From Gammaproteobacteria bacterium (GTDB lineage Bacteria; Pseudomonadota; Gammaproteobacteria; JAADGQ01), in contig WFXF01000041.1 of NCBI GenBank assembly GCA_015490755.1, positions 64,002-128,001 of the forward strand: DNA of 64,000 nt. The letters run 5' to 3'. Position numbers and translations under genes: made by a program. The first letter of the stretch is position 1. Every line of letters begins with the position of its first letter. Below the pieces are notes generated by a model. It was not told the origin of the DNA. It did not search any database and saw only the letters and a program-made list of their open reading frames with translations. Shown piece after piece: positions 28,046 through 51,347 of this stretch.

Positions 28046-28084
28046 TATAAAGTGGTTGATGTACTAGGCCAACAACTCAGTAGT

Positions 28085-28233
28085 GTAGGTCGGGTTAGCG
28101 CAGCGTAACCCGACAAAGTAATTGATGAGAAACATGACACCAATCCAGTAAGCCATAACTCATTCACTGCCCGCATCCGCCGCTAACACTTTCTTTCCAT
28201 CATGTCGGGTTACGCTGCGCTAACCCGACCTAC
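28085..28233. repeat. MITE-like element copy 1 (~149 bp), perfect 30-bp terminal inverted repeats GTAGGTCGGGTTAGCGCAGCGTAACCCGAC
   Basis: The left 30 bp is the exact reverse complement of the right 30 bp. Each TIR contains its own 7-bp stem (CGGGTTA..TAACCCG). The same element recurs at 50058 and 51190. Confidence 0.8.
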
Positions 28234-28359
28234 GTTACTTATGCTTATTTAAAACGGCTCTTTACATTATTACCTCAAGCCACAAACCTTGAGGACGTTG
28301 ACCTGCTGCTTCCATGGTACGTCAAGGGTGGGGTTGGTTAGACGCTTACTTTTCAGGAG

Positions 28360-46893: not shown

Positions 46894-46969
<76 letters not shown>

Positions 46970-47014
46970 TACATATCCGGTTTTCAACCGGGATGCTGTA
47001 GTAAATACAGCAAT

Positions 47015-47554
47015 CTAAAGTCTCTGGTCAAGCACGATGTGCTTGACCAGAGTTTTTAGTAACTCTTTCCAGCGCTTGCTGGATGTCTCTTCGAAAGTTC
47101 TAGCCAATGTTTTTAGTGTCTTGGCCATGTCAGACTCGCTGAGGTTGGCAAGTACCTTCTGTACGGAGGTTTCTTGCTCCACGCGACCTATCTGCGCCTC
47201 AAGGCTTCTACGCTGGGCGGTCAGCTCGTTAACCTTCTCAAGCGCTGGATCTGGGTCATCCAACTTTACGATCAAATCCATCGTTTTCTTGATCTGACTG
47301 TTGATGAGCGTGATTTCATCGCGAAACCCAATAGTCGGGTCGTTGAGTGTTGAGTGTGCTGCTTTCCTTGTGCTTTTAGTCACATCGGCGATAAATTTAG
47401 GATAGACCATATCGCCCAATATCTTATTCGTGAGTGCTGTATCGACAATGGACATATTGAGCCAGCGGCTTTTCTTGCCGCGTTTGGGTTTGGTGCGGTA
47501 GTGTTGTTGCCGGTCGCCCATCCACTGCGTATTATTGCGAACGTGAACACCCAA
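47015..47554 (-). pseudogene. Probable C-terminal remnant of a recombinase (coiled-coil plus a terminal large-serine-recombinase-like tail); assignment speculative
   Basis: 179-aa ORF with no upstream catalytic domain. Coiled-coil segment LEKVNELTAQRRSLEAQIGRVEQE and tail LVKHIVLDQRL. GC-rich. Its start codon in the track is TTG. The 3' end abuts the tRNA terminator. Confidence 0.25.
47023..47057 (+). terminator. Rho-independent terminator after tRNA-Glu
   Basis: Perfect 13-bp stem TCTGGTCAAGCAC / GTGCTTGACCAGA with a 3-nt loop, followed by GTTTTT. Confidence 0.7.
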
Positions 47555-47844
47555 TGGCGGTCATCGTGAACATCAACTTCCACCGCCCCTGCTTTTTCCC
47601 GGAAACCTGCACCGATGCCAGGGGAAAACAGCGCAAGGTCTACCGCTACGAGGACATGATGACGCCCTATGACAAGCTTAAATCACTCACCAACGCCAAG
47701 GATTATTTGAAGCCTGGTCTCAGCTTTGAAATACTCGACAAGCTCGCTCACCAGATCAGCGACAACCAGGCGGCGGACCGGCTCCAAAAGGCCCGCCAGA
47801 CACTATTCAAAACCATTCATGGGCGGACCCTGAAAACCGGCTGA
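47554..47844 (+). pseudogene. Short GC-rich ORF, possible C-terminal fragment of a DDE (rve-like) transposase/integrase
   Basis: 96 aa. The N..RP(C) segment (NFHRPCFF) and MTPYDKL resemble the YN..RPH...TP.E tail of IS3/IS481-type transposases. No upstream catalytic domain. Weak. Confidence 0.2.
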
Positions 47845-48155
47845 CAAAACACGCTCTCACCCTCTCTTCAGACTCATTTATGGATTGGAAAATACTGACC
47901 GTCTAATTGGTTTATCTGACGGTGCCAGTAGTCTATGGATAGTTCCTGTGAGAGAGAATGTTCATGTGGTACATCTTGTGTGTATTCCCAAACTCATGAT
48001 TTTTCAAAATGTGAATTGAGGTGGTCTGCTCAACCTCCCCAAAAAAGAGGCGCACCAAGCCGTGTTTTCATGGTGTAGTTGGTAGAGTGGGAATTCCCTG
48101 AGTCGTAAAACAGGGCCAGGCGACTCGCCTGCCATTTCGAGTGCAAACGGCGTCT

Positions 48156-49073
48156 TCAGCTCCAGGGGCCGCCTGGTTTCCACTTCAAGGTAAAATTCTC
48201 CTCACACACCAAAGCCTGCGTTGGTGGAACAAGAAACTTCTCCAGGAAATGGCAAGTATCTTCCAGTGACAGCGGTGTGGCGACGAGCATCCCTTTTCTC
48301 AGGAAAGCATTCCACTGCATGTTCTTTTGCCTATCTTCATAAAATTCGGGACTAAACCCGGATGGCGTCTGTTTCGGCAGTGGTGTGCGACGACACGAGA
48401 AGGTGTTGCCGACTGCTTCGGACAATATTGATCCGTCGAAATCAAACGAACGGGCAATGACCCAAATATCGTAGAAATCTTTCATTCGGCTATTCGCCAT
48501 GCCCAGATTGACCAGCGCTTGGTATTTTTCCGCCACCACCGTTTCTCGGGGATACGCTCTCAAACGAGGTGTGGGTGTATCCAACAGAGTGGGATATTCG
48601 ATCTCTCTTGCTTCGGGTGTTACGACATCCCCAAAACCGATGTCGGCATGAATCGATATTCTGGCTCCGGCCAGATCACCGAACAATTTTACCCGCATGC
48701 CTCCATATTCTGATTCGTCGCGAATTGCCTCAACTCGCACACTCTCTGGCGCTAGGGTTATACCGTCATCCTCGACAGGGAAGTTACAGAGTTCCTGAAA
48801 GATTGCTTGCAGGCTTAGTTCACTGCTGTCGCCAAAGCCAAGAAAATCAACATCGCGTGTTGGACGGTGCGGTTGATCACTCCAAACCATGAAAAGCATC
48901 GCGCCCTTCAGAATAAAGCGATCCCGATAGTTTGATTGGCTTAGGCGGTACAAGAGCCGTTCCAATCCGTATTGAGTCAGGAGTAGTTGGAAATCTTCAC
49001 CTCTTTTCCGTGCCAGTGACAGTAATCGGTCACGCATTGAGGCTGCAGTGTTTTCCCCACGTTTATCATTCAT
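48156..49073 (-). CDS. abiEii: AbiEii/AbiGii-family nucleotidyltransferase toxin (type IV TA, DUF1814)
   Basis: 305 aa. The N-terminus MRDRLLSLARKRGEDFQLLLTQYGLERLLYRL is typical of AbiEii. 4-bp overlap with the upstream antitoxin gene. GC-rich. Confidence 0.75.
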   Translation of the reverse strand: MNDKRGENTAASMRDRLLSLARKRGEDFQLLLTQYGLERLLYRLSQSNYRDRFILKGAMLFMVWSDQPHRPTRDVDFLGFGDSSELSLQAIFQELCNFPVEDDGITLAPESVRVEAIRDESEYGGMRVKLFGDLAGARISIHADIGFGDVVTPEAREIEYPTLLDTPTPRLRAYPRETVVAEKYQALVNLGMANSRMKDFYDIWVIARSFDFDGSILSEAVGNTFSCRRTPLPKQTPSGFSPEFYEDRQKNMQWNAFLRKGMLVATPLSLEDTCHFLEKFLVPPTQALVCEENFTLKWKPGGPWS

Positions 49074-49681
49074 GTCGCGACTGACTCCAGGTAGGGACGC
49101 ATGACATTGCGGACACGGCAGATATCAGCGTAGTGCCACAGATCATCCATAGTACAGCGCCGCGCCTGCCAACACTCCCTGAGTGCCTCAATGGCAACGT
49201 CCAGGCCGATTTTATTCCGGTATTTAAAACAGTCTGCAACCGTTTTGGCAGGGCAATATACCTGTACAGTGACTCCCTCGATTTGGTGTTTTTCAATACC
49301 CGCATCAAGGGTAGTTTGGGAGAATCGCACGATACGCAGCGGTGGATACTCAATACGCGGTCGCCAAGCTTTTTCACCTATGGCTAGCCAGACTTCAAAT
49401 GGCGCTTGGGTTGTAAGTTCGTGAAAGCGCAGAGCGGATAGTAGGCAGACCACGCCCTTGGGTACTCGTTTACAGACCTCGGCCAGTGAATGGTGTTCAG
49501 TAGCGTCGCTCCCTGGCAGGACATAAAGGCCACGGCCAATCCGTTGTAGTTTACTGGCATCACAAAGGCGGCTGAGATAGGTTCTGGGGATGCCGTGGGA
49601 ATCCAGGTCTCGGGGACGCAGAACGCCCTTATTCTTGACCATCTCCAGGACTCTTTCTGTGTGTGTGGCTCTGAGTTTCAT
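49070..49681 (-). CDS. abiEi: AbiEi-family antitoxin / transcriptional autoregulator (type IV TA)
   Basis: N-terminal wHTH (VLRPRDLDSHGIPRTYLSRLCDASKLQRIGRGLYVLP), characteristic of AbiEi_4. Start set at the ATG at 49681 (MKLRATH). A perfect inverted-repeat operator lies immediately upstream. Confidence 0.7.
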   Translation of the reverse strand: MKLRATHTERVLEMVKNKGVLRPRDLDSHGIPRTYLSRLCDASKLQRIGRGLYVLPGSDATEHHSLAEVCKRVPKGVVCLLSALRFHELTTQAPFEVWLAIGEKAWRPRIEYPPLRIVRFSQTTLDAGIEKHQIEGVTVQVYCPAKTVADCFKYRNKIGLDVAIEALRECWQARRCTMDDLWHYADICRVRNVMRPYLESVAT

Positions 49682-49687
49682 GGCATT

Positions 49688-49739
49688 AATGTTACAATAC
49701 CTAGTGTAATGCATACAACTCTTTAGGTATTGTAACATT
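49688..49739. promoter_or_regulatory. Putative AbiEi operator: perfect 16-bp inverted repeats AATGTTACAATACCTA / TAGGTATTGTAACATT separated by 20 bp
   Basis: Seen directly at 49688-49703 and 49724-49739, just 5' of the abiEi start on the minus strand. AbiEi antitoxins are known to autoregulate via paired inverted repeats. Confidence 0.6.
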
Positions 49740-50008
49740 GAGGGGTATTTCTTATAGTAGCTCGGTTGTCATGTAACATGTTGATTGTTTTTGATAAATG
49801 CAACTTCTTTGGCAACACAGCTTGTCTGTTCTTTGTGATCAGCAGATACCGGATATCTATCGCGTACCCTTGGGGACGCCATATTTGGCCTGTTATCCAC
49901 TGCAAACCTGTAGTGGATTCAGCAATCTAAAGTCTCTCGACCAGAGGTCTTATAGGTTATTTACAGCGCTCTTTCGGTATCGGCCGGAAGTTCTCAGCGA
50001 AATTTTTC

Positions 50009-50345
50009 GGCTCTATGTGATTTATAGTGGGTAGGTGTCATAATCTGCAGTCGTAGTGTAGGTCGGGTTAGCGCAGCGTAATCCGACAAAGTAATTGACG
50101 AGAGACATGACACCAATCCAGCAAGCCACAACTCATTCACTACCCACATCCGCCGCTAACACCTTCCTTTCCATCATGTCGGGTCAGCTCCTCCCGCTAG
50201 AAAACATCATAACGCATTGACATATAAAGAAAATGCGATAAAAAGTTTACGAAATAATTATGTTTAACTTATTGACTATAAAGTAAAATTTTCTCTGTCG
50301 GGAGTTCTTGATGTCGGGTTACGCTGCGCTAACCCGACCTACGTT
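50009..50345. repeat. MITE-like element copy 2, extended form, with a 127-bp nested insertion
   Basis: Shares the 49-bp left extension GGCTCTATGTGATTTATAGTGGGTAGGTGTCATAATCTGCAGTCGTAGT with copy 3. The 30-bp TIRs are at 50058-50087 and 50313-50342. The internal 127 bp (50184-50310) are absent from copies 1 and 3 and are flanked by a duplicated ATGTCGGG. Confidence 0.75.
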
Positions 50346-50524
50346 ACTCTGCTCTGCCTGAAGAGCGTAGTGCGGGAAATACGCACGCTACGTTCTATGG
50401 GAATCGGTGAGGGATGCCGTGGGGCATCCCCCTATCCCGATTAGCTGTTCACGAAGCTTTCTCAATATCTCAAGTTTATGGAATATTTGGCGTAATTACA
50501 TTATAGTTACTTAATATTTCTGGA

Positions 50525-50794
50525 TTGGAGAGAATAAAAATGGCTCATTTAGTTAAGATCGGAAATTCTCAAGGTATTAGAATCCCTAAGCCTTTAGTTG
50601 AGCAGGCTCACCTGGAAGGAAAAGAGCTTAAGTTACAGTTGGTTAACGAGGGCTTGCTTATTACACCTGAAAAAGAAGCTAGGAATGGGTGGAAAGAAGC
50701 AATAGAAGGAGTGATTTCGGATCAAGGCCAAGAAGCACTAGATAGTGAATGGCTTGATACCCCTTTGGCTTCGGATGATGAACTAGAATGGTGA
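50525..50794 (+). CDS. mazE: MazE/PemI-like antitoxin (SpoVT/AbrB-type swapped-hairpin domain)
   Basis: 89 aa. VKIGNSQGIRIPKPL AbrB/MazE motif and an acidic C-terminal tail. Overlaps the downstream toxin gene. Confidence 0.75.
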   Translation: MERIKMAHLVKIGNSQGIRIPKPLVEQAHLEGKELKLQLVNEGLLITPEKEARNGWKEAIEGVISDQGQEALDSEWLDTPLASDDELEW

Positions 50795-51111
50795 TGGTAA
50801 AGCGATTTGATGTATGGCTCGTTGATCTCAATCCTGCCAAGGGGCGAGAAATCAATAAGACACGGCCCTGTATTGTGATATCTCCAAATGAAATGTCAGC
50901 GTTGTCTACGGTACTTATGGCTCCAATGACAACAAAGGGCTTTGATTTTCCTTGCCGTATTAAGTGTAGGTTTAAGGGCAAAAGTGGTCTGATCTTGCTT
51001 GATCAAATTAGGGCGATAGATAAGTCTAGGTTGGTAAAAAAGCTTGGAACAATTAGCGCCAAAACACAGATCGAATTGTGTTCCTGTTTACAGGAGATGT
51101 TCGAGCATTAA
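50788..51111 (+). CDS. mazF: MazF/PemK-family endoribonuclease toxin
   Basis: 107 aa. RFDVWLVDLNPAKGREINKTRPCIVISPN matches the MazF/PemK N-terminal signature. Coupled to mazE. Confidence 0.78.
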   Translation: MVMVKRFDVWLVDLNPAKGREINKTRPCIVISPNEMSALSTVLMAPMTTKGFDFPCRIKCRFKGKSGLILLDQIRAIDKSRLVKKLGTISAKTQIELCSCLQEMFEH

Positions 51112-51140
51112 AACAGCTAACGAATAAGGTTAGATCTGAA

Positions 51141-51347
51141 GGCTCTATGTGATTTATAGTGGGTAAGTGTCATAATCTGCAGTCGTAGTGTAGGTCGGGT
51201 TAGCGCAGCGTAACCCGACAAAGCAATTGACGAGAAACATGACACCAATCCAGCAAAGCAAGCCACAACTTATTCACTACCCACATCCGCCGCTAACACC
51301 TTCCTTTCCATCATGTCGGGTTACGCTGCGCTAACCCGACCTACGTC
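51141..51347. repeat. MITE-like element copy 3, extended form, intact
   Basis: Same 49-bp left extension as copy 2, then the 155-bp core at 51190-51344 with perfect 30-bp TIRs. About 95% identical to copy 1 over the core. Confidence 0.8.

Follow-up and report, generated by a model that had tools for sequence, protein, structure and literature searches.

In the 64,000-nt stretch of contig WFXF01000041.1 (assembly GCA_015490755.1) analysed here, referred to below as the window and supplying all coordinates unless another locus is named, a mazEF toxin–antitoxin (TA) module occupies the spacer between tRNA-Glu and slt. We found that this module, judged by its sequence, is a gene cassette of the integron type, one that is no longer part of any integron. 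Its attC recombination site is degraded, and the module probably moved into or out of the spacer by recombination between copies of a short repeat, one of which stands on either side of it. An earlier note on this DNA had correctly placed the mazE and mazF genes between two copies, in the same orientation, of a repeat of about 205 bp: copy B at 50009-50344 and copy C at 51141-51346, which are 97-98% identical and begin 1132 nt apart. It had gone on to interpret the whole as a composite cassette mobilised by MITEs (miniature inverted-repeat transposable elements). The same repeat-mazEF-repeat structure, with both copies, is present in L001, an independent 118-kb scaffold with 99.94% identity to the window.

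Members of the flanking ProS and GltX clusters led to two relatives whose flanks are 98% identical to the window, L128 (a hydrothermal-vent metagenome) and L129 (GCA_011051515.1). Both have the order gltX-tRNAAla-tRNAGlu-about 150 nt-one repeat-slt-proS, with exactly one repeat copy between tRNA-Glu and slt, and the mazEF and AbiE genes are absent. Relatives that lack the cassette and retain one repeat, which the earlier note had proposed to look for, therefore exist, and the cassette is a discrete insertion/deletion (indel) polymorphism. The left flank of the single copy in L128 is that of B (...gcgaaatttttc|ggctctatg) and its right flank is that of C (cctacgt|ctgag...tttcaatccc), so that window and empty site differ by 1,132 bp. 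Because the empty site keeps one copy, where a composite transposon would leave none, the polymorphism points to recombination between direct repeat copies. Copies B and C differ by five substitutions and one 5-nt indel, all within the left 137 nt, and are identical over the right 78 nt, which is plausibly the crossover tract. Of the six differences, L128 has the B state at four, namely three substitutions and the indel, and the C state at the other two. The right end of B, CCTACGTTACT, is as in a third repeat copy, A, located elsewhere in the window, and that of C is as in L128. This pattern fits a B composed of a resident left part and a donor right part, and a C composed of a donor left part and a resident right part. 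The mazEF copies found in the L128 sample (L137 and L138) have different flanks.

The unit that recurs elsewhere is not the repeat-to-repeat segment that the earlier note took to be travelling, but a 681-bp core (50441-51121, forward strand) made up of a 5' border TTAGCTG (50441-50447), a promoter/operator region, mazE, mazF and an R'' box, CAGCTAAC (51114-51121). Homology to other copies begins at this border and ends with this box. Six loci (L132-L135, L137 and L138) match the window solely over 50441/3-51121, with nucleotide identities of 95% for L132-L135, 97.6% for L138 and 87% for L137, and a seventh contig, L136, begins within the core and shares the 51121 end. In L132, L137 and L138, seen in vent metagenomes, the core is one unit in an array of open reading frames (ORFs) and attC sites (three attCs in L132, four in L137). 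The array sites are 90-120 nt long, and carry GCCTAAC, GCCAAC or GCTAAC as R'' and GTTAGGC or GTTAGCT as R'. Their folding is that of attC bottom strands (z -3.6 to -13.7): the R box is paired, there is an internal loop, and the L box shows single-base bulges. The core is preceded by the G of the upstream attC R' box (G|TTAGCTG) in L132, L133, L134, L135 and L137, and position 50441 of the window has the form of a G|TTRRRY cassette recombination point, with C at the third R position (GTTAGCT). At its two ends the core carries TTAGCTGTT and AACAGCTAA, an R' and an R'' half that complement each other as a terminal inverted repeat, a pairing that is expected from the R' and R'' of a linearised cassette. 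In L003, L005, L006 and L007, unrelated housekeeping genes flank more distant copies, which have 80-86% nucleotide and 88-94% amino acid identity; the nucleotide homology of these copies is confined to about 50444-51124 and the repeat is absent.

Membership of an attC array was seen for these homologues, not for the window copy. At the 3' end of the window cassette a full attC (R''-L''...L'-R') is not present: the R'' box is followed by a 19-nt remnant on the forward strand, gaataaggttagatctgaa (51122-51140), which runs up to repeat copy C, and the rest of the site is gone. A complete attC follows the same mazEF core in L132 and L138, and 14 nt of the window remnant, GAATAAGGTTAGAT, recurs after the R'' box in the attC of the L137 mazEF cassette. 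No attC array was found in the window, and no integron integrase was found among the window ORFs checked or the Pfam labels of the homologous contigs; the check covered nine integrase-size ORFs, all of them dcw-type, between 4.6 and 17 kb (other parts of 0-17 kb were outside the scan), and took the homologous stretches through their Pfam labels. The only integrase fragment in the window is a truncated one in the neighbouring AbiE island.

Two further features of this junction were observed. In L137, a vent-metagenome array, the mazEF attC is broken 8 nt after R'' by a 216-nt element (2768-2999) with imperfect inverted ends of about 25 nt and an 8-nt duplication, (C/G)AATAAGG; its insertion point is close to where copy C interrupts the window attC. 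In addition, at the position of window 51114-51121 the same core (87-98%) is followed by two unrelated attC types, one in L132 and L138 and the other in L137 and the window. The homology between the two groups breaks at R'' rather than R', which simple attC x attC exchange does not predict.

On the 5' side, the cassette recombination point is the end of an 81-nt, 5'-truncated putative group II intron stub comprising domains V and VI (50361-50441, forward strand). It aligns to RF00029 from end to end of the model (1-77) with 34.9 bits, short of the gathering score of 40 (E 9e-6 to 4e-3 by search size), and this below-threshold alignment shows the GAGC...GUUC pairing of domain V and a CUAU in domain VI. 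The gap between stub and repeat B is 15 nt without an ORF, and domains I-IV and the intron-encoded reverse transcriptase are absent there. The stub would mark a former attC junction and, with the repeat copy, would explain why no functional attC is left. A different intron 3' end (39.9 bits) was seen in L138 (100-174), within 2 nt of the same border, and both introns are in cassette orientation. Two unrelated group II intron 3' ends abut one mazEF border, each within 2 nt of the G|TT point.

The position of these intron ends recalls group II introns associated with attC sites, in which the 3' end (domains V-VI) lies directly at the attC/cassette junction and 5'-truncated stubs are common (PMC3001079, PMC7923331). 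Classical IIC-attC introns are oriented opposite to the cassette genes and insert into the bottom strand (PMC3001079), whereas the window and L138 introns follow the cassette, and the 81 nt left in the window are too little to assign a class. Same-orientation and 5'-truncated introns beside attC sites are on record (PMC7923331). The arrangement suggests that these introns, in contrast to the classical ones, target the R' box of the attC on its top strand.

The repeat consists of two inverted units of 31-36 nt, GTAG+GTCGGGTTAGCGCAGCGTAACCCGAC(A), around a conserved 93-nt spacer. Each unit can be written GTAG + GTCGGGTTA...TAACCCGAC, and six of them form three inverted pairs in the window, with the 31-nt hairpins at 28086, 28203, 50059, 50312, 51191 and 51314; the 30-mer hairpin core occurs six times in the window and not once in 100 shuffles. 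All three copies are on the forward strand. B carries a 44-nt left extension (50009-50052), hairpins at 50058-50088 and 50312-50342 and a nested insert; C carries the extension at 51141-51184 and hairpins at 51190-51220 and 51314-51344; and A (about 28080-28239) has the same spacer and no 44-nt extension. The copies occupy two loci in the 64 kb. Dimers of GTAG-tagged repetitive extragenic palindromic (REP) sequences have been described as an unpaired GTAG followed by a palindrome of 20-40 bp, arranged as inverted dimers with spacers of 20-100 bp (PMC3733652). By the same criteria (PMC3733652) the window units are palindromes with an unpaired GTAG tag, paired in inverted orientation, and the repeat fits a dimer of GTAG-tagged REP hairpins, extended on its left by 44 nt at B and C.

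It shares with such dimers and with REPINs (REP doublets forming hairpins) a 31-nt palindrome after an unpaired GTAG, inverted pairing, a spacer within the 20-100 bp range (PMC3733652), an extragenic location and the lack of a target-site duplication; it departs from typical REP dimers in the length of its spacer (93 nt) and in the extra 44-nt extension at the mazEF locus. The term MITE used earlier holds as far as a small non-coding core (about 160 nt) with 31-36-nt terminal inverted repeats is concerned, but not for target-site duplication: no matching flanks were found at A, B, C or the L128 copy. The outer flanks of the B/C pair, ...AAATTTTTC on the left and CTGAGTTTC... on the right, likewise show no duplication.

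Copy A is absent from the relative L139, where the spacer has been replaced rather than left cleanly empty. The window spacer (28046-28359, 314 nt) and that of L139 (6343-6457, 115 nt) are unrelated, and the only part common to them is GGCCAA(C/T)AACTCAG, just left of copy A. We considered L139 as a clean empty site that would define the ends of copy A and any target-site duplication; with the spacer replaced, it set just the left end and excluded the extension. The apparent match of copy A to the extension is the 3' end of a gene and its flank, and since it is kept in L139, which has no repeat, copy A does not include the 44-nt extension. The right REP hairpin of B is interrupted by a 126-nt, AT-rich insert with weak inverted ends (50185-50310), bounded by a 9-nt direct repeat, ATGTCGGGT, at 50176-50184 and 50311-50319; this insert has the look of another miniature element nested within the repeat. 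Further copies of it, of the extension or of the L137 insert were not present among all the loci compared, and a metagenome scan for the repeat spacer motifs gave 0 matches.

The exact 31-nt GTAG-REP hairpin, GTAGGTCGGGTTAGCGCAGCGTAAYCCGACA, was found at more than 119 loci in a scan of a genome collection, in many classes and phyla, an identity across taxa that is unusual for REPs. Loci L009-L127 have only the hairpin in common with the window; spacer, extension and nested insert are all missing from them, and no further copies of the element were recovered there. The taxa include Beta- and Gammaproteobacteria, among them isolates of Zoogloea, Thiocapsa, Methylobacter, Vogesella and Acidovorax, together with metagenome-assembled genomes (MAGs) labelled Nitrospirales, Verrucomicrobiae, Desulfobulbia and Patescibacteria; most occurrences of the hairpin are solitary or form close inverted pairs at a distance of 40-60 nt. 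Some of the cross-taxon matches may come from mis-binning of MAGs. A literature string search with the REP sequence returned no match. We also asked if the repeat could be the attC of the cassette, or if the REP hairpin, which contains GTTAGC, could be a secondary integrase site; both were rejected, as the junctions lie elsewhere and copy C is followed by resident flank.

From these data, the 1,132-bp segment would have come or gone by homologous recombination between repeat copies. A gain would be a Campbell-type integration of circular or looped DNA carrying a repeat copy beside a degraded attC; a loss would be the reverse, a loop-out deletion between B and C. The circle released by such a deletion would join, in this order, the attC remnant (...GTTAGATCTGAA), the repeat, ...CCTACGTTACTCTGC and the intron stub. 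Of the two, gain in the lineage of the window is slightly the likelier. Several points weigh against this account. Gain and loss are both compatible with the data, and no donor molecule with repeat and cassette was found, metagenome scans for the spacer and for intron domain V giving 0 matches. As the extension is common to B, C and L128 but not to copy A, an extension-bearing donor copy must be postulated. Short CTGA(A/G)G motifs at the junctions permit microhomology-based alternatives, the intron match lies under the Rfam gathering score, and MazF toxicity and autoregulation at the palindrome upstream of mazE are predictions from family membership.

A first alternative, which we regard as unlikely, places the cassette in the tRNA-Glu/slt spacer before the repeats, two of which then inserted independently, one on each side, after which the relative lost the cassette by recombination. 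The repeat is indeed polymorphic among close relatives, copy A being absent from L139, other small elements have hit the cassette attC (the 216-nt insert of L137, with its 8-nt duplication), and a deletion between B and C could have left the single copy seen in L128. This history nevertheless requires three events, with both copies arriving in the same orientation and with the same 44-nt extension, which copy A lacks, and neither copy has a target-site duplication.

Duplication of the repeat and its extension in situ has, in our estimate, a rather low probability. The duplication could be tandem, or a long target duplication at staggered breaks round the cruciform-prone REP dimer, with a 789-bp fragment (intron stub, mazEF and attC remnant) captured by illegitimate or microhomology-mediated joining. 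In its favour are the presence in the duplicated stretch of the 44-nt extension that copy A lacks, the six states that B and C share and L128 lacks, and the motifs CTGAAG at 50356-50361 and 51136-51141 and CTGAG after copy C. However, the right end of B (TTACT) matches copy A and not C, and the B/C differences cluster in the left 137 nt, a distribution that is weakly non-random (about 0.07, estimated). To our knowledge no enzyme routinely makes 200-bp target duplications.

The composite transposon of the earlier note, two MITE copies and their cargo moved as a unit by a trans-acting transposase working on the outer ends, is essentially excluded. Same-orientation copies with 31-36-nt terminal inverted repeats do bracket the cargo, as two small non-autonomous repeats bracket a mobile gene module in the MITE-flanked class 1 integrons of Acinetobacter, which are said to be a precedent for MITE-flanked cargo. 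Those units, however, reportedly have a target-site duplication round the whole unit and empty sites without a MITE, whereas the empty site in L128 and L129 retains one copy with the same outer flanks and no target-site duplication surrounds the B/C pair. Moreover, direct copies ending in identical hairpins offer no special outer-end pair, and the nine other mazEF-core loci (80-98% nucleotide identity) have zero copies of the repeat. An assembly error at the repeat as the source of the two-copy or the one-copy state is very unlikely: both states come from short-read metagenome assemblies and several contigs break inside the repeat (L130), but the two-copy state is found in the window and in L001, whose independent assembly shows that it is no artefact, the one-copy state is found in both L128 and L129, B and C are distinguishable at several sites, and the mazEF copies of the L128 sample (L137, L138) have other flanks.

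Recombination between repeat copies thus remains the favoured route for the degraded cassette. A broader proposal, which we put forward tentatively and consider improbable at present, is that REP dimers act as portable homology, giving cassettes that lack an attC a second means of movement through host recombination at any chromosomal copy of the repeat. A cassette circle or fragment with a REP dimer in its attC would integrate at, and loop out of, such copies; if true, this would seed solitary TA and defence cassettes in genomes without an integron. Group II introns in cassette orientation, homing to the R' box, may contribute to inactivating the attC in this scheme. All of the components are of known kinds, and what is mildly novel is only that REP dimers would give degraded cassettes a recombination-based afterlife.

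The genes themselves agree with a type II TA assignment, with a PemK/MazF-domain toxin and a coupled AbrB/SpoVT (MazE) antitoxin upstream of it, as in MazEF/PemIK systems. mazE (50540-50794, forward strand) encodes an 84-aa AbrB/SpoVT-type antitoxin (PF04014, E 4e-9) and mazF/pemK (50794-51111, forward strand) a 105-aa toxin with a full-length match to PF02452 (E 2e-28). The overlap of the two genes reported earlier is borne out, the mazE stop overlapping the mazF start in TGATG at 50792-50796. An alternative mazF ATG at 50788 would give 107 aa; an exact look-up with the 107-aa form found no match, and the deposited gene call is the 105-aa form. MazF scored 39-44 bits against the NCBIfam MazF/ChpB equivalog models, under their cut-offs. 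Against seven homologues dN/dS was 0.04-0.26 for mazE and 0.03-0.13 for mazF. Non-functional ORFs, which would have told against the earlier interpretation, are not indicated: at the level of sequence both genes are intact and the family is under purifying selection.

A palindrome upstream of mazE, GTAATTACATTATAGTTAC (about 50492-50511), has 17 of 19 positions invariant among five homologues, while a promoter/terminator consensus scan over the region gave nothing informative. By family, MazF would cleave RNA as a sequence-specific endoribonuclease and MazE would neutralise it, and the pair would regulate its own expression at the conserved palindrome, which would overlap the promoter. Close MazF homologues number in the thousands. 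A large share of the closest ones lie on contigs of 0.5-1.3 kb, and the collection median contig is also about 1 kb; the short contigs are only suggestive of a cassette usually flanked by assembly-breaking repeats (attC or other).

TA gene cassettes are well known in sedentary chromosomal integrons, for example in the Vibrio superintegron (PMC13108822). The window module resembles them in being a type II TA of two genes that has its own promoter, a 5' border G|TTRRRY and an R'' box after the stop codon, and in having homologues of its core at 95-98% identity in attC arrays. Unlike them, it lies outside an array, with no integron integrase among the window ORFs checked and an attC reduced to R'' plus 19 nt, and its indel polymorphism depends on REP-dimer repeats and not on attC x attC recombination. 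Like TA cassettes in chromosomal integrons, the mazEF pair is probably an addiction module or a stress/abortive-infection module.

The actual empty site shows how an integron TA cassette can become fixed in a housekeeping spacer far from an integron, and that the limits of an insertion or deletion can be determined by short REP-type repeats and not by a transposase. It also calls for caution, as a repeat-cargo-repeat arrangement need not be a composite transposon. The locus is a small example of traffic between the integron cassette pool and the core chromosome in hydrothermal-vent Gammaproteobacteria.

The AbiE pair that the earlier note had placed upstream of the cassette is present at 48156-49738 on the reverse strand and consists of the AbiEii nucleotidyltransferase (48156-49073; PF08843, E 7e-47) and, overlapping it, the AbiEi antitoxin (49070-49738; PF13338, E 2e-11), the two partners expected of an AbiE system. 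Both modules are delimited by repeats, as the note had said, but the repeats differ: mazEF lies between B and C, and AbiE is bounded by attachment (att) repeats of the tRNA-Glu 3' end and represents a separate event. The last 16 nt of tRNA-Glu(UUC) (46894-46969, forward strand) form the left att repeat (46955-46970), and an exact copy at 49867-49882 closes a 2.9-kb island (46971-49882). Next to attL, an ORF on the reverse strand (47015-47554) gave no identification with Pfam or NCBIfam and was recognised through PHROGs as the C-terminal part of a large integrase (phrog_95, E 7e-10). Given the att repeats and the integrase fragment, the AbiE islet is an island of its own that targeted the tRNA gene and has since decayed, and it is not MITE-bounded.

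The islet resembles other tRNA-targeting AbiE islands in its tRNA 3'-end direct repeat, the integrase remnant by attL, its defence cargo and its absence from a close relative, and differs from them in that its integrase is truncated, its length is only 2.9 kb and its att region includes a 75%-identical copy of some 100 nt from downstream of the tRNA. The sequence that follows the tRNA in L128 corresponds to the attR side of the window, and the left side holds a 75% homologue of it, the tRNA-downstream terminator region of about 100 nt, which was brought in by the AbiE island. The spot downstream of tRNA-Glu is variable, as had been suggested, and differs in three lineages (the window, L128 and L131); in L131, a relative at 81%, other genes follow tRNA-Glu. 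On the attR side of the window (49936-49948), compared with L128 (12965-12930), a terminator-like hairpin (ctctggatcgagcacaatgtgctcgatccagag in L128) has lost its central 20 nt or so.

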